In this document: positions 2,956 through 63,677 of the stretch, piece after piece
How positions within the stretch are numbered: position 1 is the first letter of the stretch
How the letters are laid out: each line of letters opens with the position of its first letter
Virus record (IMG/VR): IMGVR_UViG_3300033153_004497
Coordinates: 1-63,827 of that record
Length of the DNA stretch: 63,827 bases
Direction: 5' to 3' (one strand)
DNA from: a virus
Lineage: Duplodnaviria; Caudoviricetes
Position numbers and translations under genes: made by a program
The notes under the pieces: generated by a model
What the model saw: only the letters and a program-made list of their open reading frames with translations
Databases searched by the model: none
Told to the model about the DNA's origin: nothing

Positions 2956-3097
2956 AATATCTGTATTTTAACACCTATTTTTTTATGTCTGTAGGAAATC
3001 TGGCGTAGATAAGATTTGATACTAAGGTCAAAAGCTTTAAGCCGAAACCGAGACCTGAAATATATATCAGAATATTGAAATATATATGAGCCTCAAG

Positions 3098-3238: not shown

Positions 3239-3661
3239 GAGCGTGTCAGGGGCAAAACCGAGAAAAAAAGATTTGAAAATAATTTTCGAATGGCAGGATA
3301 AAGTTTTTTATATAATAAGAATATTTTTTATGTGATTCCACAGAAGGTCTCTCCCTATGCCTACCCTTATGCCCCCGACTTGCGCCCCTCTCCTGTGACC
3401 TTAGTATCACACCCCCCTGTCTGCCCACACCACCAGACCACGGGCAACCCCAGACCCACCCTAGGATTTTATCACATCTGTTAGTATTTGTCAAGGGTAT
3501 ATGTGTGCGGTGCATCACAGAAACCTTCATCAATATGCTGTATACTTCCGTGGGTGGGGTCAGGGGCTAAGCACAGGAAAGTATTTGATACTAAGTGCAA
3601 ATAAGTATTGACAAATAATAAGCGTTATGATATACTTCCGTGGGTGGGTAAGAGGGCTACC

Positions 3662-5512
3662 CTACTGATACGCTATCTCTCTATCTGGCTCTACTGTGAA
3701 CTGTGATGTTATCATGGGGGATGGTTGCACCCCGAAGCTTGCCCATGTCCACCGTTGCATCGTGAGTCCATACACTACCCCCGCGAAGGCATCACTCAAG
3801 TCCTTAGTGTTATAAGCGTTGTGGTCTATCTTCCCCTTGGACGTTCTCTCTAGGTGTACCAGTTCATTGCGTACATGGGCATCTTCAGGAGCAGCTATCC
3901 GTGCATCATTGAGTGCTGACTTCAGGATGTCATATGGTAAGGGTGTCTTGTCCATTGATTGTAAGCCTGTCATGTACCCACGCCCCCTTAGTATCTGTAA
4001 GCTATCGACTGACTGGTATGAGTCGAATGTCACCCAACGTATCAGTACACCTAACTCAGTAAGCTTATATAGGATTGTCCTGATCTTACTAAAGTTTATC
4101 TCATCATTCATGGGTGGAGTAACCCGCAAGAACCCGTCAATGCGTATGTGGGGCATCATGCCACCCACCTTGCTATCCTCATCCCCTTCTATCATCACGA
4201 ACTTATCCACGTACCCTATACAGAAACCTGCTGCATCAGACGTTAAGCCTAAGTCTATGTGACAGAATCGGGGTCTATGTGGCTCTGTAATAGCATCCTT
4301 GACTAAGCCCACCTGTGTAACAACAAAATCACAGTCTCCACGGGTAAAGATACTTTTGATCTTAGTATCAAAGTTGTTGTTGAGTGCTTCCACGTTAGGC
4401 AGATAAGGAGCCTTGGCAACCGTACTCACCCCTGCTATCTCTCTCAGGGCATTGTAGATATCGTTAATGAATCGCTTTTTGTACTCTTGGGGTATCCGCT
4501 TAACCTGAGCAGGGTAATCTTTCTTAGTGCTCTTCACATCAGCGGGGTCAATGATGTACGGCTTGCGGGTATCGGAGCCGATGAACACGCTAAACCATTT
4601 GCCTGTGAATACTTCGGGGGGCTTCATATCCCATATCACTTCATCCCGATAATATATCCCCGCATCTTTCTTGGCTTCTGCTGCCTTGCGGTCTGTGAAT
4701 TGTCCGGGATAGTTCTTGGAGCTACCTAAGCAAAGTATTCCCGGCACTACCCCTTGACGCATGAAACGCGATTCTCTACGGGAGGCAATTGAGTTATACA
4801 ATTCTATTGCTTGGTTGAATTGCCCCCCATCAACTAATTTGCGGGAACTATCGACTACCTCCATGAAATTTATTTCATCGACAAACCCCCCGTAAACATT
4901 TTGACCGATGGTAGCAGATGTCTCCCCCGATGTAGGAAAGACACTTATGTTTTTTGGGAAGACCAACCGCGAATCTAAATCCTTCCGATAGGGAAAGACC
5001 GTATTGAAATATTCGCTGTTCTCAATCATGTTTCGAAAACGCGCATAATCGACATCCCGCGCAACTCTCGCATTTATCGACTGGAAAACAAAGTAAATTT
5101 CTGAAGCTCGGTCTTGATTCAGCAGCAGATGTGGAGATCGAAAGCAAGATAATAAATAAAGTTGATATGCTGTTGTATACAGTGCTCTAGTAGTTTTTGC
5201 TGTTCCTATTCCTCCTGTTAATACACACTCGTAGTACGTCTGCCCCAACCTGTCACCGTTAGGGTTATTTATTTCTATAATACTGTCCATTACAGCAGGC
5301 CAAACTTCATCCCCCGTTCCCAAAAACTTTTTATCAAATATGAATTCTTCTATGGTAACTGGATATCTGCCCAACAATAGAAGGGAAGGCAAACGAACAA
5401 TATTCTCACCTTCAAGATACCATTCTATTGACTGTCTTATATCCTTGCTGAATGGGTCTTTCTTGCCCACCAAAGATCGGTGCATACTGCTAAGCTTTTT
5501 TGCGGATTGCAT
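3662..5512 (-). CDS. terL: Terminase large subunit
   Basis: Walker A GGIGTAKT, Walker B GFVDE, motif-III-like LGSS, RNase H-like nuclease motifs HIDLG...FDSYQS...KDLSDA. Confidence 0.9.
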   Translation of the reverse strand: MQSAKKLSSMHRSLVGKKDPFSKDIRQSIEWYLEGENIVRLPSLLLLGRYPVTIEEFIFDKKFLGTGDEVWPAVMDSIIEINNPNGDRLGQTYYECVLTGGIGTAKTTRALYTTAYQLYLLSCFRSPHLLLNQDRASEIYFVFQSINARVARDVDYARFRNMIENSEYFNTVFPYRKDLDSRLVFPKNISVFPTSGETSATIGQNVYGGFVDEINFMEVVDSSRKLVDGGQFNQAIELYNSIASRRESRFMRQGVVPGILCLGSSKNYPGQFTDRKAAEAKKDAGIYYRDEVIWDMKPPEVFTGKWFSVFIGSDTRKPYIIDPADVKSTKKDYPAQVKRIPQEYKKRFINDIYNALREIAGVSTVAKAPYLPNVEALNNNFDTKIKSIFTRGDCDFVVTQVGLVKDAITEPHRPRFCHIDLGLTSDAAGFCIGYVDKFVMIEGDEDSKVGGMMPHIRIDGFLRVTPPMNDEINFSKIRTILYKLTELGVLIRWVTFDSYQSVDSLQILRGRGYMTGLQSMDKTPLPYDILKSALNDARIAAPEDAHVRNELVHLERTSKGKIDHNAYNTKDLSDAFAGVVYGLTMQRWTWASFGVQPSPMITSQFTVEPDREIAYQ

Positions 5513-6348: not shown

Positions 6349-7550
6349 TTAGGTGATATCAGGATTTGATACTAAGGTCAAATTTTGTTTCCTTCTGTTC
6401 CATACCTCTTTCATGGTTTTAAGGTTCCTGTTCAGTTCCCCAATCGCTTTCCTGACAGCAGCAGGGGTCACTTCGTAGGCAACAGCGACTTCATAAATGT
6501 CCTGTTCGTATTTGACCACAGAATTACCAATACGGATATTCTTCAATAATTCTGATGCTGTGGATTCTCCTGACATTAGTAATTATCCTTCTCTGACTAT
6601 AAGGCTAACCAGATCAACCAACTCTGATTTATTGAAATATGCTGTAACCTGATCTACCAGTTCAGCAGTATCATGTGAGCAAAAGAATTTTCCGTTCAGC
6701 CGAATGTAATATGGTTGGGTTGGTGCATCAGGCATAAATTTGCCAAACGCCCCCAAAAGGTCTACTGCCATGTCTCGCTTGTTCATGTTCCTGTTTCCTT
6801 TTGATATTCAAGTGGGGTATCACAAAGAAATCCGTGTGAGGCATCTGCCCCGTTTGCTTCTCCGAAATAGCCCACGGTTTCACAATCCATATTGATTGCA
6901 TAAAAGTGAGTGTAAGGGTCTTCCCCTTTTCCATCAGACCGATTCAGTTTCGTGTTTGCTTCACGGGTTGCCTGAACCCACTGGTGGAAATCGATATGCT
7001 GAACTATCATTTCAACACACCTCCACAGCGTAGTATCTCCAACCACAAGAACCTTTAAGTATTCCCCGCTTGATCAATCCACGAACACAAGGAGCAGTTG
7101 AATGAAAATCGAAAGTCGCGTAACCAGTTTGGTAGTTACAAGAATAGTCGCTTGTTGAGATATCGAACTTTTCACCAGACTTCTTATCCTTCAAGAACTC
7201 CAAAAGTTCTTCAGTGTTTTTCCCTTTCGGGGCTTTGTAAGAAAATCCCATGATTATATCCCTCCGTTTACGAAACTGTCAGACAGCAACACCAAAGTAT
7301 TATCACATTCTTTCATGCGTCTAATACGAGTTGCTTTATCATCCTTATTAACACAAAGGACATGAAGCCTAATGCCTTCAATTTCTGCTTTGACATCAAG
7401 GGTCAGCTTTTTCTCAGTATACAAATCCATGTATTTACGAACCGTAGTGGTTGAACATCCCCACTTGAGAGCAGCCATTTTAATTTTCATCCCGTTACTC
7501 AGGACTTCCCGTGCTATGTAAATTTTCGTTTTCGTGTCGTTCATTATCAT
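6349..7550 (-). CDS. Five small hypothetical genes (6349-6576, 6583-6786, 6783-about 7010, 7012-7251, 7254-7550)
   Basis: Tightly packed ORFs; 7254-7550 has an HTH-like segment (IKMAALKWGCSTTTVRKY). Confidence 0.55.
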
Positions 7551-7636: not shown

Positions 7637-7921
7637 TTACAGACTGGTGTAAAGACCAGTGTTCTTTTCGATCAGTGAATGAAGCATGTCAACGTAAGCA
7701 CCTTCAAAAGTAGCTTTAACCTTGTAGTCCATTCCCCAGACCTTTCCAAATTCCATGTCGTATGTGTCCATAGAATTCAAAGTGATCTTGATGTAGTTGA
7801 CTGCCTTCGAACCACGAACCCGAAAACTCAGGGCATTACCGCAGTCAAGCAAATTTTTCGCACCCAACATATACAGGGCTTTGTGTCCGATTTGCTCTTT
7901 AATTGTGTTTGCTATTGTCAT
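7637..7921 (-). CDS. Conserved-type phage early hypothetical protein
   Basis: ANTIKEQIG...MLGAK...DTYDMEF...TGLYTSL pattern; its own TTGACA/TATACT promoter lies at about 7957-7986. Confidence 0.7.
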   Translation of the reverse strand: MTIANTIKEQIGHKALYMLGAKNLLDCGNALSFRVRGSKAVNYIKITLNSMDTYDMEFGKVWGMDYKVKATFEGAYVDMLHSLIEKNTGLYTSL

Positions 7922-8019
7922 TTGTTTTTCCGTGTTTGTTTAATTTCTATACTCTAAGTATACACCATACAGAAATTATTTGTCAATTATTTTAGTGATG
8001 TAGTTCGCATTCTCTGAAA

Positions 8020-8308: not shown

Positions 8309-8440
8309 TTAAGCTTTGTAACCCAGAGCTTCGTATTTAGCTTTAACTGACTCAGTGTTTACTACTACTACTTCTTTACCTGATACTTCGTGGGTCAGTG
8401 TTACAGTGGTTTCGTTTGCTTTAGTGTTTAATTCGTTCAT
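8309..8440 (-). CDS. 43-aa peptide, paralog of 29198-29329 (not in the ORF track)
   Basis: Translates MNELNTKANETTVTLTHEVSGKEVVVVNTESVKAKYEALGYKA. Confidence 0.75.
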   Translation of the reverse strand: MNELNTKANETTVTLTHEVSGKEVVVVNTESVKAKYEALGYKA

Positions 8441-8464
8441 CGTGTTATCTCTTTGTTTGTTTGT

Positions 8465-8529
8465 ATACTATAAGTATAGCACCTTGACAAATAAAAGCAA
8501 GGTCTTTTGACAAATAAAAAGGGGAATAA
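8465..8529 (-). promoter_or_regulatory. Early promoter block, 65-bp perfect inverted copy of 29108-29172
   Basis: TTGCTT-N16-TATACT with an extended -10 TG, and two TATTTGTCAA boxes. Confidence 0.8.
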
Positions 8530-14851: not shown

Positions 14852-14944
14852 GTTTAAAATCTCCTAAATTTTCATGTTCAATTGTTTGACTCTGTAAGCT
14901 TAAACTATTTTATAATATTTGTCAAGCACAATTTGATACTAAGA

Positions 14945-15478
14945 TCAAATATTTTCTACAGGGGAATGATCGATAGACAAATGTTTTGCATCCCCTTTCT
15001 TCCAAACACCTTTATCATCAGCAATACCTAAATGCATAAACAGGGTGCAAATAGCAAGCCCATAGGCATCAGATAAATTATCATCAGTGGTATCGTATCC
15101 CCAATTTTTATAGACCCCCAACATAATCAAGTTCTTTGCACACTGCCCCTTGCCCGTGACAAATTTCTTCAAAGTTGGTGGTGGTATTAATTTATAATCA
15201 TACTCCGATTGCCACAAAAAGTATCGAATAACTGTCCCAACAGAATACGTGATTTCGTGATTATATTTGGAACCAAAAGAATATCCTTCTAGCCCAATCA
15301 GATCAGGTTTAAATTTTTTCAGCATATCAATTATGCATCCCCCGATATCCCCCAACCTTTGCATCTCTTTATGCTTGGAAGAATACACACCCTGATAAAC
15401 CGTTTGAATAACACCCTTCTTGTTATCTAAAACTATTAATCCCATTTTGGTACTTGGGTCAATTCCTAGAACTCTCAT
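14945..15478 (-). CDS. ruvC: RuvC-like Holliday junction resolvase
   Basis: LGIDPS, LEGY, PPTLKKFVTGKG, DNLSDA. Confidence 0.85.
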   Translation of the reverse strand: MRVLGIDPSTKMGLIVLDNKKGVIQTVYQGVYSSKHKEMQRLGDIGGCIIDMLKKFKPDLIGLEGYSFGSKYNHEITYSVGTVIRYFLWQSEYDYKLIPPPTLKKFVTGKGQCAKNLIMLGVYKNWGYDTTDDNLSDAYGLAICTLFMHLGIADDKGVWKKGDAKHLSIDHSPVENI

Positions 15479-22153: not shown

Positions 22154-22614
22154 TATCCGTATTTGAGTCTGCGATTGCCTTCTTTAATGTCAGTCAGAAC
22201 TTCCATTTCATCAGGACTAAAATATTTATCCAGATCACCCAAAGCAAATTTTGCCAGTTTCAGGGCAAGACCTTCTTCGAAAGCTTCCAACGCGATTACA
22301 ACTTCATCAGTGTCTTTGATGTTGCGTGACTGAACACGGGCAGAAACACCCATAACCAAATCCCCGTTAATCAGATTCACGGATGCTGTCCCATCAAGTT
22401 CAGGGTCAACAAGTCCACGAATTTCTTTTTCAATAGGGTTAAGTTTGTCGGTAAGATTTTTGGTCTTAGCAGCCAGAACAGCGATTTCCTTTTTCAATTT
22501 GAATGCTTCAGGAAGTAGTTTGGTTGCGACCTCAATTCCAGTAGAAGAAGTGACCGCAGATTTTTTACCTGTTGCCAACTTTACTTTTGATTTTGTCTTT
22601 AGCTTAATTGCCAT
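22153..22614 (-). CDS. Hypothetical protein
   Basis: GGGGA RBS before MAIKLK; coupled to primase. Confidence 0.6.
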   Translation of the reverse strand: MAIKLKTKSKVKLATGKKSAVTSSTGIEVATKLLPEAFKLKKEIAVLAAKTKNLTDKLNPIEKEIRGLVDPELDGTASVNLINGDLVMGVSARVQSRNIKDTDEVVIALEAFEEGLALKLAKFALGDLDKYFSPDEMEVLTDIKEGNRRLKYG

Positions 22615-24466: not shown

Positions 24467-25090
24467 TTATTTTAATTCTAGGAAATGATTATCTATATGG
24501 GTTCTCAGAACCCCACCGTATTGTTGATTAATGTAATCTAATGTTTCGACATATAGTACTACCTGCCTACCTTGGCTATGACTCTTGAGCACCCAACTTA
24601 ATACATTGGACATTTCCCATGTAGCCACATTGCCCCCCTCAGATTTATCTAACGCGAAGTTTGGAATGCAAATCAATTTGCTCTTGGGTGAAGCCCCTGA
24701 TTTAATTTCCTTGATCAAATCCTGTAGGGTAATAAATCGGGCATCAACAAAGTTACGAGTCAGTACCCCCACCATGCTGTACATCCTGTCTATGAAATTA
24801 TGCTTGCCCTCAATTACTGCCCCGCTAATTCCTTTGGATTGATGAACCCCGAACCCTTCCAGATATTTAACATCCTTGGAAAGCAAAACCCCTTCCGAAG
24901 TATTGTAAATAAAATACTCTGGAATCCCTGCTTGCTCTGCATACATCTCAATATTTTGAACCATACGCCAGTGCTTCTTATATTTAAGAATTCCTGTGGC
25001 GTAATAATCTGCATAGACTGACATGTGATGAACTTCATCTTCCGACAAATCATCAACTTCAACATCTTTGGTCTTCAATTTAATTCCCAT
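24467..25090 (-). CDS. Degenerate DnaC/IstB-like helicase loader
   Basis: Lies between initiator and helicase; AGIPE.F and ARFITLQDLI segments; Walker motifs are eroded. Confidence 0.45.
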   Translation of the reverse strand: MGIKLKTKDVEVDDLSEDEVHHMSVYADYYATGILKYKKHWRMVQNIEMYAEQAGIPEYFIYNTSEGVLLSKDVKYLEGFGVHQSKGISGAVIEGKHNFIDRMYSMVGVLTRNFVDARFITLQDLIKEIKSGASPKSKLICIPNFALDKSEGGNVATWEMSNVLSWVLKSHSQGRQVVLYVETLDYINQQYGGVLRTHIDNHFLELK

Positions 25091-26030
25091 TTAGTTTCCC
25101 CGCAGCTTTCAATAATGCTTTGGTATATGCATCCGTGACAGGTTTCTTATTTACTTTGAGTTTCGTTTCTGGATTAAGTTTGATCTTAGTATCACTTTTA
25201 TTTTTGTAGAACATCAGGGCTTGATTCGCGTTATAAACAAAATACTTTATTTCTGGTGACACAGGTTTCTGGGTTCCTCCAATGTGCAGGTTTACGAATT
25301 TAACGAACCTCTCCCAATCACCCACGCAATATTCAACCACCTTTTCAAAATCGGTTTCCAGTTTCTTTGCAGCCTTATTCATTATCCCTGCTTGAACTTG
25401 GGTAAACTTTAAATCCACATCCATAGACAGATGTTCGTTTTGGAAATCGACACAAGCGTTTCTCCAAATATCAATAGGATTCATTTTCTTCTTTTTTGTT
25501 TTCCCTAACTTCACTAAATCCAAATCTGCTATTTTCATTTTCTCTCCTACCCCTTCCGTAGAATCGGAATTTGATTTTGTGATTTCTGATTTCGGAATCA
25601 CTTTACTACCTTTATTTACTTCATTATCTACTACCTTATTTACTAGGGTGACTGTGTGGCACTGGTCTGGTGACTGTGTGGCACTAGGGGGGTGACTCTC
25701 TGGCACTAGTGCTAGTGACTGTGTGACACTAGTTGACTCCCCTTTTTTAGCTTCGTCAATCCTTTTATCCAAAACTTTTTCATCAATAGTATAGTGATTT
25801 CCTTTGCCCATAATTTTCTTGATGGTAATCAAATCATGATTGGCTAGATTTTTAATACTCCTGATAACCTGTCTTCGACAACACCCACTAAGATTTGCCA
25901 AAGTATTAAACGATGGATAGCAAAAACCTTTATGATCAATTTTGTCAGCAAGAATAGCCAACACCAATTTTTCATAAAGGCTAATGTTCAGACGATTCCG
26001 AAGAACCTTCTGGGTTAGCTCAAAAGACAT
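25080..26030 (-). CDS. Replication initiator with N-terminal wHTH (lambda O-like architecture)
   Basis: EKLVLAILAD..GFCYPSFNTLA..SGC.RR.V...IKNL; internal iterons. Confidence 0.8.
   Translation of the reverse strand: MSFELTQKVLRNRLNISLYEKLVLAILADKIDHKGFCYPSFNTLANLSGCCRRQVIRSIKNLANHDLITIKKIMGKGNHYTIDEKVLDKRIDEAKKGESTSVTQSLALVPESHPPSATQSPDQCHTVTLVNKVVDNEVNKGSKVIPKSEITKSNSDSTEGVGEKMKIADLDLVKLGKTKKKKMNPIDIWRNACVDFQNEHLSMDVDLKFTQVQAGIMNKAAKKLETDFEKVVEYCVGDWERFVKFVNLHIGGTQKPVSPEIKYFVYNANQALMFYKNKSDTKIKLNPETKLKVNKKPVTDAYTKALLKAAGKLNGN
25605..25732. repeat. Probable replication origin: four iterons plus AT-rich repeats
   Basis: GTGACTGTGTGGCACT(A/G)G variants at 25648, 25670, 25692 and 25715; ACTACCTT(T)ATTTACT twice just before. 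Confidence 0.8.
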
Positions 26031-26031
26031 T

Positions 26032-26823
26032 TTACTTCTTCTTGGGCTTGTCCTTCTTCGGGGGTTCCACCACTTCATTCAAAATCTCAAGAGCAGCATC
26101 CCCCAACTCCGTGCCTTTGACACTGGTAGCTACACCAGTTTCTTCATCGACAAAAACGATATCATCTATCTTGGGAACCACTCCCGATTTTTCCAGAATC
26201 TTCTTTGCTGCACCATTGGCTTTTCCCAACACCTTATCAATAGCAATGACATCCGCTTTCTTACCTTTCGGTTTCTTGGCATCGGGTTTTGCAGGGGCAT
26301 ACATGGTTAAAAAATCTGCCATGCTTTCTGCAACCACTTTCTTAACTGCGTCTGTTGGCTCACAGAAAATTGCCATGCTCCGAAGAATACGCTTGCCCAA
26401 ACTGGTAAAATCTTTGGACAGTTCCTTGTACAACTTTTCGTAACCTTCTTGGGTTGTGGGGTCTCCGTACCCATCAAGAGTTTTATCAGATGTCAGGACA
26501 AAAGAAATTCGGTTACTGCCAACAGTCAAATGACCACCCTTGATAGGATTGGTGTGCAGCTTTTTATTTACATCTGCTGCTTTGAAATGTTGGTTGAACC
26601 AATTGCTCATGCTGTACAGGTCTATCTTCGCATCAGGAACCAATCTGATTCGCACGAAAAAACCTATGGGTTGTCCCATGTTGTTCACCGAAAAATCCAG
26701 TTTCAAACAATAGCGAACCCTATCTTCAAAAATCACAAAGTAATCTTTGTGTCCTTCACTCCCCTCAACCCTGTCCAGAGTTTTCAGGGTGGTGGTCTTC
26801 TTTACCAGTTTTTCATGTATCAT
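26032..26823 (-). CDS. Hypothetical protein
   Basis: AGGAG RBS; 263-aa ORF within the operon. Confidence 0.65.
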   Translation of the reverse strand: MIHEKLVKKTTTLKTLDRVEGSEGHKDYFVIFEDRVRYCLKLDFSVNNMGQPIGFFVRIRLVPDAKIDLYSMSNWFNQHFKAADVNKKLHTNPIKGGHLTVGSNRISFVLTSDKTLDGYGDPTTQEGYEKLYKELSKDFTSLGKRILRSMAIFCEPTDAVKKVVAESMADFLTMYAPAKPDAKKPKGKKADVIAIDKVLGKANGAAKKILEKSGVVPKIDDIVFVDEETGVATSVKGTELGDAALEILNEVVEPPKKDKPKKK

Positions 26824-28153: not shown

Positions 28154-29010
28154 TTAACTGTCTAGCTTTCGAATCATACCCTCAGTGAATACAAGTTTAG
28201 GATTCGGACTTTCGTGTGTATGGTTCTCAGGATGCACTTCCTTCAACCAAACCATATTGTGTCCTGCTAATTTGTCGAAGCTTTCAATGCGGAAGGTTCC
28301 ACAAATCCTACCTTCTACTATTTCTCCAACTTTAAAATTTTCGAATGACATCTGTTCTCTCCTAAATTTAGATGATGTACTGCAAGCCTACGCTAGTTTA
28401 AAATATTTGTCAAGCAGAATATCTTTTAATTGCTGCTTCAAATTTTTGCTTGGTATCAAACATACGATTGTATTTGTCATCCCAAATAGGATTTCCGAAA
28501 CAGTCCCGTGCCTTCATATCAAAATAATCATTTCCATTGTGGTCTATATCCTGATCAAACCACAAAGTTATTTCACCTTGCTTCCTGACTATTTTGATTT
28601 CAGTTCTATTCATTACCGTATCCAAGTTCCTTCGTTGTCGGTAGTCAGTACCATCTTTTTTTCTTTATACCCCTCAGCTTTGACGTTGACAACTGAAGAC
28701 CAGAACCATGTACCCAATTGACCTTTCATTTCTGAATAACAAGGTTTGAAGTCCCACGATACTTTCAGGTTTTTGATTTCAGGGTTTGCCTTTTTAATCA
28801 TTCGTTTGGCAATCGCTAGTGTTGGTTTTTTCATTTCGTTTTTCCTTTGTAAATTTCTTCATTCCAATGTTGAGCAATTGCTTTTGCAACCTCTTCAGTT
28901 GGAAGTTCTTTATTCAGAACCTTCAGAACAGTGTTGTCATTCTTAACTAAGATTACACGATGACCTTCTTTGTTGCTGTCGGTATATGCTTTGTGTTGGT
29001 TCAGTTTCAT
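28154..29010 (-). CDS. Four small early genes (28154-28351, 28410-28625, 28613-28834, 28831-29010)
   Basis: Coupled ORFs behind a TTGACA/TATACT promoter at about 29044-29071; 28831-29010 (59 aa, MKLNQHK...) was read manually. Confidence 0.6.
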
Positions 29011-29107
29011 TTCGTATCGTGTTTGTTTTGTTTAAGTCCTATAAGTATAGCACCCTCTTCGTATTTGTCAATGCAATATCATTAATTAAATCAATTATTT
29101 ATGTGAC

Positions 29108-29172
29108 TTATTCCCCTTTTTATTTGTCAAAAGACCTTGCTTTTATTTGTCAAGGTGCTATACTTATAGTAT
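29108..29172 (+). promoter_or_regulatory. Early promoter block, inverted copy of 8465-8529
   Basis: 65-bp identity; divergent from the promoter at about 29044-29071. Confidence 0.8.
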
Positions 29173-29197
29173 GAAAACAAACAAAGAGACAAACAAC

Positions 29198-29329
29198 ATG
29201 AACGAATTAATGACAAGCACTACAGTAGGAACCGTAACACTGACCCACGAAACTTCAGGTAAGGAAGTAGTAGTAACAAACACTCCTTCGGTAGTTTCAA
29301 AATACGAAGCTCTGGGTTACAAGGCTTAA
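29198..29329 (+). CDS. 43-aa peptide, paralog of 8309-8440
   Basis: Translates MNELMTSTTVGTVTLTHETSGKEVVVTNTPSVVSKYEALGYKA. Confidence 0.75.
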   Translation: MNELMTSTTVGTVTLTHETSGKEVVVTNTPSVVSKYEALGYKA

Positions 29330-29335
29330 TCCACT

Positions 29336-29356
29336 AGCCCCTTCGGGGGCTTTTTT
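29336..29356 (+). terminator. Intrinsic terminator
   Basis: AGCCCC-TTCG-GGGGCT-TTTTT. Confidence 0.85.
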
Positions 29357-29375
29357 AATTCCAACGAGACACGAA

Positions 29376-29633
29376 ATGAATAGAGCAAAGAGAATTACAA
29401 CAGGTGAATATTCCTACAGGGGATATGAACTTGCCGTTGATGCAACGGGTTGGATGATCAAACTTGAAGGAATGAATCACTACCCTTGGGATGCAGAATC
29501 CAAAAAAGATGCAATGGGATTCATCGATCATATGATTGACGATGATGAAACCAAAGCCCACCTGAAAAAAACCGAAGACCTCTCTGATGAAGAACTCATG
29601 AAAGTTGATGGTTGGGCATGGTTGGATAGATAA
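29376..29633 (+). CDS. Early hypothetical protein
   Basis: ATG ORF followed by the 23-nt element and a terminator at 29665-29689. Confidence 0.65.
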   Translation: MNRAKRITTGEYSYRGYELAVDATGWMIKLEGMNHYPWDAESKKDAMGFIDHMIDDDETKAHLKKTEDLSDEELMKVDGWAWLDR

Positions 29634-29727
29634 AGAATTTACAGTTAAATCGTGTGTTGTTTTTGGGAGTCCTTGAGGCTCCCTTTTTTATGATTGGAAT
29701 TTTTTATTCCATTATTCCACAAGGCAT

Positions 29728-29840
29728 AAAAAAGCCCCATCAACAAGGGCAGGTTGCTAATGAGGCTCCACCCATTCACAGGGGGATAGTTCTGTGAGGC
29801 ATAGGCAGAATCATTATCACATGGTTTTTCTTGTTGTCAA
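29728..29840 (-). ncRNA. Candidate sRNA-2 (about 79 nt) with its own promoter and terminator
   Basis: TTGACA(29840-29835)-N16-GATAAT; hairpin UCACAG-[AACUAUCCCC]-CUGUGA; 14-bp terminator stem with loop CCUGCCC and a U-run. Confidence 0.7.
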
Positions 29841-29868
29841 CTGTTGTGGGGGGTTGTAGTTAGCCAAC

Positions 29869-29984
29869 AAAAAAGCCCCAACATTTCTGAAGGGGCTTAG
29901 ATGTCACACGACAAACAATCAAAACACGAATAGGTGACAGCAATCACCTGAACTTAATTATAACTTACGGGCTTCATTTGTCAA
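29869..29984 (-). ncRNA. Candidate sRNA-1 (about 82 nt) with its own promoter and terminator
   Basis: TTGACA(29984-29979)-N16-TATAAT; 5' hairpin AGGUGA/UCACCU; G/U-rich middle; AAGCCCC/GGGGCUU terminator with U-run. Confidence 0.7.
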
Positions 29985-30377
29985 TCACTTACTGAGCAGT
30001 TGTTCATTGATTTGATCGAACTGTTTATTCAATTTTCGGATATCGTTTTTTAACTTTTGGACATACTCCGCACTAGGTTGTTTTTTTTGTTGCTCCCGAA
30101 ATAATCTGTCTTCAAGAATGTCCAACCGAATCTGAGTCAGGGCAAGAGCGTTCTGCAAATCTGCTACTTGTCGAGAGTCATCAATAGATTTGAATTGCCC
30201 CGCAACATCCATAGACATTGTATTAAATTCTGCACTGACTTCAACCGTGTGGGCATGTCGCTCATCAATTTGAAAGACCGCACCAGTAACCAGAATTAAA
30301 ATTGTAACTCCCCCAGATATCATAGCAATCACCTTTGATACAGTTGTGAATTTTCCATCTTCCGTTTTGATCTTCAT
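29985..30377 (-). CDS. Membrane-anchored coiled-coil protein
   Basis: One transmembrane segment followed by a coiled coil; last gene of the late operon. Confidence 0.6.
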   Translation of the reverse strand: MKIKTEDGKFTTVSKVIAMISGGVTILILVTGAVFQIDERHAHTVEVSAEFNTMSMDVAGQFKSIDDSRQVADLQNALALTQIRLDILEDRLFREQQKKQPSAEYVQKLKNDIRKLNKQFDQINEQLLSK

Positions 30378-30477: not shown

Positions 30478-30870
30478 TTACCCGTCACCATCTATCTGTT
30501 CCCGCATGTTGTCAGAATCATTTTTCAGTTTATCAATCTTATTGTTGAACGTAATAATACATTCCCGATAATAGGCAACAACTCCACGCTGATCAATTAT
30601 GTATCTGATAGTTTCCTTTGTGTTGATTGCCAGATTTTCATAATCCTCTGGGGTCAGTGCCACCCACCAGATTCCTGCCATGTCTTGAATCGCTCTTGGC
30701 TTGATCGGTCTTGCATTTATTGATGTAACTTTTTGGGCATCAGGACAAACCACGGGAACATAGACAGGAACATTTTTTACTACAATCTTTTCTTTGGTGA
30801 AAACTCCGCACCCAGAAAGTGATACTAAGGTCAAAAAGAAAAAGACTAAATAGGCACTACTTAGTCGCAT
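30478..30870 (-). CDS. o-spanin (lipoprotein)
   Basis: Signal peptide with LSGC lipobox, Pro-rich segment, overlaps the i-spanin. Confidence 0.75.
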   Translation of the reverse strand: MRLSSAYLVFFFLTLVSLSGCGVFTKEKIVVKNVPVYVPVVCPDAQKVTSINARPIKPRAIQDMAGIWWVALTPEDYENLAINTKETIRYIIDQRGVVAYYRECIITFNNKIDKLKNDSDNMREQIDGDG

Positions 30871-31252
30871 CTTCTAATTCCCCCAAAACTTTTGCCGTAG
30901 CTTTTATCATTCTGTTTTCTATAAGTCCCGGTTTCTTTTCAAGCAACATTCTGAAGTCATGACCCTGAAAAAGATTTCGCACGTACTCAACTTGCTTGCG
31001 GGATTCTTCACGCTCAGCACTGAGCTTAATTATTTGCTGTTGGAATGCTGCTACCTGATCAGCTTGAAATTCATTTGCGATTTCCGCAGTGGCAAGATTA
31101 CCTTCAGAAACTTCTAGCTCCGTAGTCAGAACTTGTATCTGAGAATCCTTAGCAGCAATGATTAATTCTTTTGCCTGAACCTGAATGTACAACCACCCGC
31201 ACAAAACTCCCAGAGCAGCCATTCCAATTAACCCAAGTTTCAATCCCATCAA
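30857..31252 (-). CDS. i-spanin
   Basis: N-terminal TM, coiled coil, KKPGLIE motif. Confidence 0.75.
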   Translation of the reverse strand: MMGLKLGLIGMAALGVLCGWLYIQVQAKELIIAAKDSQIQVLTTELEVSEGNLATAEIANEFQADQVAAFQQQIIKLSAEREESRKQVEYVRNLFQGHDFRMLLEKKPGLIENRMIKATAKVLGELEDATK

Positions 31253-31687: not shown

Positions 31688-32197
31688 CTACGGTATTGTA
31701 AATGCTTGCCCCCGATTATCTTTCCCTGCCCATGAAACATGAACCCAACCAGAATCAGGAACACCCTTTTTGGGGAACTCTCTGATTAGCTGATCAAATT
31801 CAAAATCCTTTTTAATCAGATCGAACAGGTCATCATTTGACATACTTGAAACTTCTATATCAATAGCCGAACCTTTGGGATGTGATTTCCTTTTAAAATA
31901 TTCTGCCCATGAACTCAGGTCAACCCGATATTCATTTTTCGCACACCATCTACGATAGGCACTTTGGGTCAAACGCTTTTCCAGAGTTTCACACCTGAAC
32001 CAAGATTGGGGCATCATAGCCCCAACTTCATTTCGTAGGGGTTGAAGTAAGTGCTTCACCAACTCCTGAACATTAAAAATAATAACCTTGTCATCAGTTA
32101 CATTATTAATTTCTAGTCGCTCAGCAGTCGATGACTTCCAAACTTCATACCACCTAAAATTTGGACACTTCTTTACAATCAAATTAGTATCTTTCAT
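31688..32197 (-). CDS. Endolysin, peptidase M15A family
   Basis: SWFRC..L, SHPKGSAID, FDQLIRE, WVHVS. Confidence 0.85.
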   Translation of the reverse strand: MKDTNLIVKKCPNFRWYEVWKSSTAERLEINNVTDDKVIIFNVQELVKHLLQPLRNEVGAMMPQSWFRCETLEKRLTQSAYRRWCAKNEYRVDLSSWAEYFKRKSHPKGSAIDIEVSSMSNDDLFDLIKKDFEFDQLIREFPKKGVPDSGWVHVSWAGKDNRGQAFTIP

Positions 32198-38315: not shown

Positions 38316-38394
38316 CTCGTTAAACCAAATTATTAACTTCAAGTGTAAAACCTCCTAACGCTTTGCGCTATAGCAGATTGATACTAAGATCAAA

Positions 38395-53383: not shown

Positions 53384-53458
53384 GGTCTCAGTCTCGTTGT
53401 GATTTAAAACAAGGGGGGAATTGCAACCCCCCCAAGATATTTGATACTAAGGTCAAAC

Positions 53459-59607: not shown

Positions 59608-59711
59608 TAACTGATTTTCGGCACTCGGAGTCAAAACGAAAAACTTAATGAGACTAATTTAAAACTACCTAACGACATCCGCAAGGAGTTTTTGATACTA
59701 AGATCAAACGA

Positions 59712-61718: not shown

Positions 61719-63677
61719 TTAGCCTAGCTGATGTGTGTGACCGTTGGTAGAACCTGTGGCGTTTGATTCACTGTTCCACGTATGGGTATGCCCTTCATCT
61801 TCTGATGTCACCCCACCCGCTTCAAGAGTATGAACATGATTATTTACACCACCCGTTCCAGTAGAGTCACCTGCTTCGGCTTTGATTTGTGATACCACCC
61901 CAACCAGTTCAGACATTCCAACATTATCATTTTCAACTGAAGCATAGATTTTATTACTGACAAGCATGTTGACCATATCCAATTCAAAAGCATTCAAAGC
62001 TTTGATGCTTGTTTCCAGTGCCTTCAAATCTTTGGCAGGAATAGACTTGGTTAAATTTCGTACCTGAAGATCGGCAATAACTCCCAGATAGGAAAGATCA
62101 ACTTTTGCTACGGGTTCACCTGTACTCGCATCAATCTGTTCTTCATCTACAAAATCTTCGATGTGGGGGTTGCGTACTTGGTCAGCAGAACTTGACCCAC
62201 TGAATCTTTCAGCAATCTCATCTTCAACATCTTTTTCCAGTGGCTTAACTTCAACACTGCCCACCAGATTTAGATTCTCAATCAAAGACTTCTTGGTGAT
62301 AGCACCTGCATTCATTGCAGTTCGAAGTGTATTCAGATTTGTTTCTGCATCAGCAACAGTCAGGGGTTTTGATTTGATTCGATACTTCCCTTTGGTTACT
62401 TCCTTCATAACCGTGTTGTTAAATGCTTCATCAAACTCCATACGTTCAGGGGCAAATACCTGTGCTTCTGCCAAAGTGTAGGAGGCAAAAACCGAAGCAT
62501 AAGAATAGTCATCTGCCTTACCAACAAACAACGGGGGCAAACGGAATGAGGCGCGAACACGTTTCTCACACCTGTCATCATAATTTTCAAACATGGAATC
62601 CTGTTGACGGTCAGAGCCGAATGTTTCTACATCGACACGCACACCACCACCCTTATCAATGGTTCCTGATGTGCTCTGAATATCGGCAACAATTCCTTTC
62701 AATTTGTTTCGTGCTTTTCCTGCAAGCAATCCTTCCAATTGTTTTCTAGCAGTCTCAGCCATTGCACCACCAGAAATAAATACCATCAACGGGGGAATAC
62801 CACCCGCAGCAAAATATTCAAGATTTAATTCTTCAGCAGATCGGGAACCAACTACTGATGGTAAATTGTTGAGCCAACGGGGAACACCGTAGGGAGACAC
62901 AGCAGATCGATGAACAGTCAGATAAATAATTTCTGAAGCTCTGTCTTCGAAGGGTAATCTTTTACCTGCATCTTCAAGGAAAGTTCCTGTGTCTTTTGCA
63001 AGATCACGGGTAGAACCAAAATCCTTGAAATAGATTTTCTTACGATTGACTAACTGAACATACCTTCTTTCACGGGTCAAAGTTTGAAGTTTCATTTCAG
63101 TCCCACCACGGATTAATGTTTTTTGGGTGGGTACAGCATTCCCCAATTTCATCAACCTGATGGTCTTGGATTCCAAAGTTCTCATGAAAATAATTTCATC
63201 TTTGGGATTTCGGATTACTTCAATGCAACCATATCCAGAAATCTCTAACTGCCTTCTCAATTGCCTACGAAGAGTGATAAAAGAAATGGTAGGGGCAACC
63301 TCCATCAAAAATTCTTTGACAGGGACAAGAGCCTTTTCATCCTGCTCAGTCATTTCTTCCCCATCAGTTCTGACAATATCAAAACCCGTTCCATCAATGT
63401 TGACCTCCATAGCAGAGACACACTGATTCAACGCATTGTTTTGTTCGACAAGGGAATAATAAATGTCGGGGGAAATTTGGGGTTGAATAACCTGAGTGGT
63501 GTAGCTATTCAGAAATGTGTCTTCGATATCAAGAGCATTCGAAGTTACTTGAGCTTCCGCTTTTATAATAGCAGTTACGTTTGTTTCCAACTTAGCTACA
63601 TTGGATTGCGTGTTTGCCTTGGTGGATTTCCTGCGAGTACGGGCAGTCGCAGTTTTCAATTTGGTAGTTTCAGCCAT
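61719..63677 (-). CDS. Portal protein (PBSX/XkdE-like) with C-terminal extension
   Basis: G.G.IEVIRN, YGVPRW, YF..GG.P, FRLPP.FVG...DYS.A. Confidence 0.88.
   Translation of the reverse strand: MAETTKLKTATARTRRKSTKANTQSNVAKLETNVTAIIKAEAQVTSNALDIEDTFLNSYTTQVIQPQISPDIYYSLVEQNNALNQCVSAMEVNIDGTGFDIVRTDGEEMTEQDEKALVPVKEFLMEVAPTISFITLRRQLRRQLEISGYGCIEVIRNPKDEIIFMRTLESKTIRLMKLGNAVPTQKTLIRGGTEMKLQTLTRERRYVQLVNRKKIYFKDFGSTRDLAKDTGTFLEDAGKRLPFEDRASEIIYLTVHRSAVSPYGVPRWLNNLPSVVGSRSAEELNLEYFAAGGIPPLMVFISGGAMAETARKQLEGLLAGKARNKLKGIVADIQSTSGTIDKGGGVRVDVETFGSDRQQDSMFENYDDRCEKRVRASFRLPPLFVGKADDYSYASVFASYTLAEAQVFAPERMEFDEAFNNTVMKEVTKGKYRIKSKPLTVADAETNLNTLRTAMNAGAITKKSLIENLNLVGSVEVKPLEKDVEDEIAERFSGSSSADQVRNPHIEDFVDEEQIDASTGEPVAKVDLSYLGVIADLQVRNLTKSIPAKDLKALETSIKALNAFELDMVNMLVSNKIYASVENDNVGMSELVGVVSQIKAEAGDSTGTGGVNNHVHTLEAGGVTSEDEGHTHTWNSESNATGSTNGHTHQLG

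Follow-up and report, generated by a model that had tools for sequence, protein, structure and literature searches.

The late and early genes of an apparently virulent siphovirus are separated by a short gap in which a promoter, a hairpin and a terminator follow each other closely, and this raises the question whether the gap encodes a regulatory RNA and, if so, what such an RNA would act upon. The window analysed here, i.e. the whole stretch of DNA, is a 63,827-bp IMG/VR virus record with a completeness estimate of 72%. The first-pass annotation read the gap as two small RNA genes in tandem, one of which, here called sRNA-1, was proposed to be a multi-target silencer of the early genes.

Nearly all genes in the window are oriented along the minus strand. 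The structural genes run from 63.7 kb down to 30 kb and end in a lysis cassette with an endolysin (31688-32197) and two spanin-like genes (30857-31252 and 30478-30870). The last gene of the late operon (29985-30377, minus strand) encodes a 130-aa membrane/coiled-coil protein, for which no relative was found in IMG/VR. The early and replication genes extend from 29.0 kb down to 3.6 kb; their products include an AAA ATPase, an initiator with iterons, DnaB, a primase, a helicase, a UvsX-like recombinase, an exonuclease and a thymidylate synthase. A rightward early operon (29198-29633, plus strand) ends in a terminator at 29665-29683, which is convergent with the sRNA cassette. sRNA-1 thus lies in the 350 bp that separate the late-operon end from this convergent plus-strand terminator, with the phage lysis cassette on one side and phage early genes on the other. 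The 652-aa product of 61719-63677 is the portal protein, and since it shares at most 43% identity with portals of Rhizobium, Stenotrophomonas and Vibrio phages, no host can be named. A blastn search of GenBank phages with 29600-30100 gave no match. Searches for an integrase or resolvase, as a tyrosine (PF00589) or serine (PF00239) recombinase, detected none in either the window or G001, a 100%-complete relative; the phage is therefore probably virulent, although plasmid-type prophages would escape this test.

Several other elements were observed in the genome. A strong, terminator-like hairpin (AGCCCCTTCGGGGGCT followed by T6) at 29336-29351 (plus strand) separates the 43-aa gene of the rightward early operon from the gene after it, 29376-29633, so that the latter would need read-through or a promoter of its own. 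The plus-strand terminator of the window is absent in G001 (29634-29695 compared with L003 1029-1045), in which only an AT-rich hairpin (TGGAATTTTAAATTCCA) is found; consequently, rightward early transcription in G001 may continue into the sRNA cassette in antisense orientation. At 25645-25732, inside the replication-initiator gene 25080-26078, four direct repeats of 22 nt (GGTGACTGTGTGGCACT-like) form a likely iteron origin. An 18-nt palindromic motif, TTTGA(T/C)CTTAGTATCAAA in the minus-strand reading, is repeated chiefly in the gaps that precede blocks of minus-strand genes (3006-3032, 3580-3602, 6356-6382, 14923-14949, 30809-30835, 38368-38394, 53436-53458 and 59682-59708), with inverted copies at 4355, 8537 and 25179. 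It occurs in the replication module and the structural module alike, and may serve as an operator or as a middle/late promoter specific to the phage.

The unit contains, on the minus strand, all the parts originally described, i.e. a TTGACA-N16-TATAAT promoter driving about 82 nt that comprise a 5' hairpin, a G/U-rich tract and a terminator. The -35 hexamer TTGACA (29984-29979) abuts the TGA stop codon (29987-29985) of the last late-operon gene, and is separated by a 16-nt spacer from the -10 hexamer TATAAT (29962-29957). This 12/12 match is the sole sigma-70 site of its kind in the window, where 0.07 are expected both from base composition and from 300 first-order Markov simulations. The predicted transcript of about 82 nt runs from about 29950 to 29869. 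It opens with a 7-bp hairpin, AGGUGAU-UGCU-GUCACCU (29949-29932), followed by a 33-nt G/U-rich tract, AUUCGUGUUUUGAUUGUUUGUCGUGUGACAUCU (29931-29899), and closes with an intrinsic terminator, GCCCC-UUCAGAAAUGUU-GGGGC plus U6 (29896-29869). The tract is composed of a conserved 21-nt core, AUUCGUGUUUUGAUUGUUUGU (29931-29911), which is the putative seed, and a variable G/U-rich tail, CGUGUGACAUCU (29910-29899). The 27-nt stretch 29931-29905, which contains the core, is 85% G+U and belongs to the top 0.11% of windows of the same length. The transcript has a minimum free energy (MFE) of -27.5 kcal/mol (z = -3.66), and only 1 of 200 shuffled sequences folds equally well. The description of the tract as unpaired needs some qualification: it is mostly open in the folds of all four lineages compared below, with the core unpaired or weakly paired in each, but the MFE folds of the window and of lineage L041 contain a weak hairpin inside it, which is absent in the other two lineages.

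In the terminator hairpin (CCCC-UUCAGAAAUGUU-GGGG, 29875-29896) inner C-G and A-U pairs close a GAAA loop. The terminator string has 21 matches in IMG/VR, 20 of which lie in apparently unrelated contigs (loci L011-L031), with the same loop and as ordinary gene terminators. The string is therefore no marker of sRNA-1, and the hairpin has the appearance of a terminator module that is widespread and possibly mobile. This observation bears on the explanation that the gap produces no functional separate RNA at all, and that tandem terminators or insulators halt late transcription before the convergent early operon, the promoter-like hexamers being incidental. The unit is indeed located exactly at the convergent junction, between the late operon end at 29985 and the plus-strand terminator at 29665-29683, and the same hairpin serves as an ordinary gene terminator in those 20 other contigs. 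However, a conserved open core of 21 nt and a covarying hairpin at the 5' end are not needed for termination, and the 12/12 promoter, against an expectation of 0.07, still scores 12/12 in two further lineages and 10/12 in the fourth despite the divergence of its spacer. The explanation by terminators only is considered very improbable.

The tandem arrangement of two sRNA units was also recovered. Directly downstream of sRNA-1 lies sRNA-2 (29840-29734, minus strand), which has the same promoter-to-terminator build, with a TTGACA-16-GATAAT promoter including a TG element (29840-29813), a terminator at 29750-29734 and a length of about 83 nt. It is kept in all four lineages with long identical blocks, and in G001 its stem CACAG/CUGUG has become CUCAG/CUGAG, as judged by eye. 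No Rfam family matches sRNA-2, which is not rich in G/U.

To what extent sRNA-1 is conserved was assessed in at least four lineages, i.e. the window itself (L037), G001, L040 and L041, a number that gives low power and modest statistics. G001 (89,323 bp; median protein identity to the window 75%) was reached via the neighbouring ATPase. L040 and L041 are metagenome contigs found by a scan with the adjacent 85-aa protein, which also returned copies of the window (L037) and of G001 (L038 and L039). Searches of IMG/VR with exact seed strings gave no matches. Both sRNA-1 and sRNA-2 are present at the same place in all four lineages. The hexamers of sRNA-1 match the consensus at 12/12 positions in three lineages and at 10/12 in G001 (TTGCAA/TATACT); meanwhile the promoter spacers differ at 2, 5 and 9 of 16 positions. 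The core is the best-conserved segment of sRNA-1. Its edit distances from the window to the three other lineages are 0/21, 0/21 and 3/24, so that it is identical in three of the four, compared with 12/25, 12/27 and 9/29 for the discriminator and 5' hairpin and 2/14, 7/14 and 8/15 for the 14-nt tail piece at 29910-29897. Among the contigs of runs X2-X5, those of X4 and X5 represent an L041-like variant and are not independent evidence; none of the 40 differences listed, out of 153, falls within 29901-29932. Of the listed runs that contain this stretch, none is recorded as an RNA run.

The order of hairpin, open tract and terminator is retained in the individual fold of each lineage. The 5' hairpin has 5-9 bp, with different stem sequences in the four lineages. 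Alignment of the full transcripts by MAFFT/RNAalifold misaligned this hairpin and called the terminator only, for which reason per-sequence folds and a short realignment were used. In the short realignment the paired fraction of 5' hairpin cells is 86%, compared with 33-56% when the partners are slid as a control, with the inner stem of G001 one column out of register and scored as broken. In three of the eight hairpin pairs both partners have changed, and as many such pairs arose in 34 of 500 shuffles. For the terminator, RNAalifold gives 10 pairs; three of them are altered on both sides, for instance from G-C to C-G.

Base-pairing sRNAs usually show this combination of preserved hexamers, covariation in the stems and an open core that does not vary. 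sRNA-1 has the features of a free-standing sRNA: its own promoter and intrinsic terminator are kept in relatives, its stems covary and its seed is conserved. The promoter, the fold, the presence in four lineages, the drift of the spacer, the compensatory changes and the invariant core together argue, at the level of comparative sequence analysis, that sRNA-1 is very probably a real conserved sRNA gene. The same comparison is informative about two other potential products of the unit, a micro-peptide and an R-loop primer for replication. An open frame of 16 residues, cysteine-rich, runs from GUG at 29947 to a UAA stop in the window (VIAVTYSCFDCLSCDI followed by the stop), and the strong promoter would yield a G-rich RNA. 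The frame has no Shine-Dalgarno (SD) sequence and starts inside the 5' hairpin. The micro-peptide was rejected: neither start, stop nor frame is kept in L040 or G001, and the indels are not multiples of three. Against a replication primer stands the location of the iteron origin elsewhere, at 25645-25732 in the initiator gene. Taken together, a micro-peptide or primer is hardly credible.

The strict conservation of the core also bears on the idea that sRNA-1 binds or titrates a protein or an RNA, such as Hfq, ribosomal protein S1, an RNase or sRNA-2, instead of pairing with mRNAs. A consensus promoter implies high abundance, and a tandem arrangement with a second conserved RNA fits such a role. 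A U-rich open tract combined with a terminator U-tail is a typical layout for Hfq binding, and sRNA-1 has both. However, 21 nt of low-complexity sequence that are kept exactly point to a sequence-specific partner, and no CA-rich stretch was seen by eye in sRNA-2. Binding or titration in place of mRNA pairing is quite improbable.

If sRNA-1 pairs with mRNAs, the early leaders of the phage itself are the candidates proposed from the outset. These leaders belong to a family with a characteristic promoter-leader module, TTGACA (or TTGCTT)-N16-TGcTATACT-TATAGTAT-aCAAACAAACAAAGAGAuAACACG-AUG, of which the window contains three exact or near-exact copies (0 expected) and a fourth, looser copy at 7986; G001 contains seven early leaders and L040 one. 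The early 5' untranslated region is about 26 nt long and consists of ACAA repeats and ACACGA, in which no more than a GAGA is left of an SD sequence; most other genes carry SD sites of the GGAG/GAGG type. In C+A richness four of the early leaders are within the top 6 of 100 start regions. ACA/ACAA motifs have been described to enhance translation, also without an SD sequence, and to be silenced by the GU-rich R1 region of GcvB (PMC3879156).

The best predicted target is the minus-strand 43-aa gene 8309-8440, which is preceded by a TTGCTT-16-TGcTATACT promoter and a 26-nt ACAA-repeat leader (8441-8500). A similar promoter and leader (29137-29197, plus strand) stand before its 43-aa paralogue, gene 29198-29329. 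On the minus strand, a TTGACA-16-TGcTATACT promoter with leader (29011-29071) precedes gene 28831-29010, and a TTGACA-18-TATACT promoter with leader (7922-7986) precedes gene 7637-7921, the next gene in the operon being 7254-7550. The two 43-aa paralogues (MNEL...YEALGYKA), which are encoded on opposite strands, share an identical 19-nt promoter stretch and near-identical ACAA leaders, and a copy of this gene is also present in G001.

All seven target words listed in the first-pass annotation are found just upstream of the starts named: ACAAACAA and AACACGA at 8440 (minus), GACAAACAA at 29198 (plus), AAACACGA at 29010 (minus), ACAAACA/AAACACG at 7921 (minus), ACACGAA at 29376 (plus), AACAATCAA at 7550 (minus) and CAAACAA at 22614 (minus). 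The accompanying statement that these genes lack a clear SD sequence holds for the early leaders, with their GAGA remnant at most, but not for gene 22614, which has a clear one (AAGGGGA).

The complementarity between the seed and the early leaders is evident when it is compared with the rest of the genome. All four leaders defined by their promoter alone carry seed complements of at least 7 nt. For the further comparisons a set of five leaders was used (8440, 29198, 29010, 7921 and 29376), the last of which had been chosen in the first-pass annotation for its match. Seed-complementary 7-mers occupy 17 of 125 positions in the early leaders; the corresponding counts are 20 of 8850 in the rest of the intergenic DNA and 262 of 118244 in coding DNA, and the positions are not independent. 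This amounts to an approximately 60-fold higher density in early leaders than in other intergenic DNA, and the expected enrichment is therefore present. The mean duplex energy of the early leaders is -15.6 kcal/mol, compared with -11.0 ± 3.3 for all 100 start regions (Mann-Whitney P = 0.0013), with ranks of 3, 7, 11, 12 and 28 out of 100. With unfolding costs included, the cofold energies of the early leaders rank 1, 3, 9, 14 and 21 of 100 (P = 0.0006); the 8440 leader comes first (-21.8 kcal/mol), the start of gene 7254-7550 second, the 29198 leader third and the 29010 leader ninth. None of 600 random genomic 33-mers from the window pairs as well with the early leaders. Similar results were obtained for G001 with its own seed (seven leaders against 154 others, P = 0.0010; 0 of 400 random genomic oligomers as good). 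Among 71 ortholog pairs between the window and G001 the 43-aa early gene ranks first, and early leaders account for three of the top six.

Gene 7254-7550 (minus strand), which comes second in the leftward early operon, encodes a 98-aa protein that appears helix-turn-helix-like by eye. Its start and the G001 start at 67036 (minus strand), an ortholog by gene order only, show the best or second-best seed complementarity in their respective genomes. The sub-seeds involved differ, being AACAAUCAA in the window and AAACACGAA in G001.

The complementarity is less distinctive when the seed is compared with dinucleotide-shuffled versions of itself. Complements of at least 7 nt were observed in 14 of 100 start regions, against 9.3 ± 2.8 for shuffled seeds (P = 0.08; 1000 shuffles), and complements of at least 8 nt in 6, against 3.4 (P = 0.14; 1000 shuffles); for the total number of 7-mer matches P is 0.048. 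The early-leader energies give P = 0.17 with 500 shuffles, and P = 0.29 with 200 shuffles in the cofold calculation. For G001 the corresponding value is 0.03, in a test that is not independent since the sequences are homologous. A reversed seed reaches -14.8 kcal/mol, compared with -15.6 for the true seed. No cognate co-variation of seed and leaders was found between the window and G001, each seed pairing equally well with the leaders of the other genome. When the entire window was scanned with RNAduplex (15946 windows), about 13 coding sites outscored the best leader, in a calculation that favours long G-U-rich duplexes.

The seed complementarity to early leaders thus exceeds the genomic background and that of other start regions, but it is marginal against dinucleotide-shuffled seeds (P 0.08-0.29; 0.03 in G001). 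Because shuffled seeds are almost as good and matched changes in seed and leaders do not occur, the complementarity is compositional: a rare G/U-rich RNA meets rare A/C-rich leaders, with no specific match letter by letter. Compositional complementarity would also be the pattern of GcvB, and by that analogy it would neither prove nor dismiss the targeting idea. Of the original proposal of a multi-target silencer of early genes, the conserved sRNA gene and the enrichment of complements in early leaders relative to the genome are borne out; the order of the letters adds little beyond composition, and several coding sites score better than the leaders in the duplex scan.

A compositional match leaves room for a different set of targets, i.e. 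host mRNAs with CA-rich ribosome-binding regions. sRNA-1 would then be a GcvB-type mimic that, for example, shuts host transporters, and the match to the phage leaders would be a by-product of shared ACA enhancers. Apart from the lack of sequence specificity, host targets are favoured by the core being conserved more strongly than the leaders would require, and by the precedent of the phage sRNAs PreS and VpdS, which are described as acting on host mRNAs (PMC12197685; 10.1101/2024.10.31.621285). On the other hand, sRNA-1 does not match the GcvB model, and a degenerate 18-base core pattern, used to look for a host look-alike in 596 Gb of genomes, gave 19 scattered matches in diverse taxa, which is about the number expected by chance according to the estimate made here. 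Moreover, among the start regions of the phage genome complementarity is highest at its own leaders, which would be hit anyway. That host mRNAs are the main targets is considered improbable. The early leaders are the preferred main targets, a tentative assignment from sequence complementarity whose chances are somewhat below even.

The best explanation overall, with chances somewhat short of even, is that sRNA-1 would be a trans-acting sRNA of about 82 nt that pairs with the phage's own early leaders and shuts off early-protein synthesis. In this model the host sigma-70 polymerase would transcribe sRNA-1 from its consensus promoter from the first minutes of infection on. The two end hairpins, i.e. 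the 5' hairpin and the intrinsic terminator, would protect the RNA, make it long-lived and present the open core. The G/U-rich core would then pair, with any chaperone being likewise a presumed component, with the short leaders of about 26 nt, rich in ACAA repeats and ACACGA and weak in SD sequence, of the early mRNAs. The predicted duplexes are colinear, with the 5' part of the core, UUCGUGU, on ACACGA beside the AUG, and its 3' part, UUGUUUGU, on ACAAACAA near the 5' end of the mRNA. Such pairing would cover the whole leader, from about -26 to the AUG, and mask the ACA-type enhancer, the start codon and the 30S binding site, and early-protein synthesis would fall as the stable sRNA-1 accumulates. 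The promoter of sRNA-1 is of the host type, like the early promoters, and both would fire together, so that a timer function is only a model.

GcvB is an enterobacterial, Hfq-dependent sRNA whose chromosomal locus lies beside gcvA. No such adjacency exists here, sRNA-1 being located between the phage lysis cassette and the early genes. With the GcvB family model (RF00022) no match was found at the gathering score (42 bits) in the window, and none at E ≤ 1 in the record. In a search of 29640-30000 against Rfam all 11 matches at E ≤ 10 were below threshold and GcvB was not among them, the best being asX2 with 23 against 70 bits. Membership of the GcvB family is thus ruled out. The likeness is an analogy of design, not homology: both RNAs have a conserved, unstructured GU-rich pairing region, which in GcvB is aimed at CA/ACA-rich enhancers at ribosome-binding sites (PMC3879156), both end in an intrinsic terminator, and the proposed multi-target logic is shared. 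In contrast, the RF00022 model has 204 positions and sRNA-1 has 82 nt, without homology in sequence or structure. sRNA-1 is phage-encoded beside lysis genes, and its putative regulon consists of the phage's own early leaders, not of amino-acid transporters. AgvB, an anti-sRNA from an EHEC prophage, is another phage RNA on the GcvB/CA-rich axis (PMC12197685), but it mimics the CA-rich targets and sponges GcvB, while sRNA-1 has the opposite polarity and is GU-rich like GcvB itself. This polarity excludes sRNA-1 as a GcvB sponge.

Other phage RNAs resemble sRNA-1 in part. The c4 RNA of P1/P7 and sar of P22, of about 70-80 nt, repress genes of their own phage at the level of translation by pairing at the start region (PMC12197685), which for sRNA-1 is a proposal. 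They belong to temperate phages, in which they act in immunity against one operon (ant) and block anti-repressor synthesis, whereas sRNA-1 has its own promoter, candidate sites in several unlinked operons and a phage in which no integrase or resolvase was found. The 77-nt OOP RNA of lambda is similarly a mini-gene with its own promoter and terminator in a phage genome (PMC12197685). OOP is cis-antisense to cII, unlike sRNA-1, opposite which (29869-29950) there is no supported plus-strand gene. PreS of lambda and VpdS of vibriophage VP882 are phage-encoded, trans-acting and seed-based, and support the lytic programme (PMC12197685; 10.1101/2024.10.31.621285); VpdS is described as regulating both host and phage mRNAs (10.1101/2024.10.31.621285). 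They show no similarity to sRNA-1 at blastn sensitivity, they differ in seed composition and proposed regulon, and the phage of sRNA-1 is uncultured. No equivalent sRNA is present in Table 1 of a 2025 review (PMC12197685), in the abstract and sections 17-18 of a lambda RIL-seq preprint (10.1101/2024.10.31.621285), or among the papers listed by text searches of the literature. With no match to an Rfam family, sRNA-1 looks like a new phage sRNA family.

According to the same review, the phage sRNAs that are understood are few, come mostly from temperate coliphages or prophages, and have a single operon or host genes as their targets (PMC12197685). Against this background the farthest-reaching reading, which is rather unlikely, is that of an RNA-only early shut-off in a virulent phage, in which a GcvB-like seed would silence the phage's own early regulon of ACAA-enhancer, weak-SD leaders, convergent with the logic of GcvB, and would form with sRNA-2 a two-RNA control cassette at the late/early junction. 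The targeting hypothesis can be tested by reporters in E. coli without the host of the phage. The leader family itself, a strong promoter combined with a 26-nt ACAA leader and a weak SD sequence, is a candidate portable expression element. If the targeting is true, it would be a natural second case, outside enterobacterial GcvB, of regulation by a GU-rich seed directed against ACA-type enhancers. A conserved sRNA in an apparently virulent, uncultured group of marine-sediment phages, with a family of own early leaders that seemingly relies on such enhancers instead of strong SD sequences as its target, would then represent a new layer of phage temporal control.
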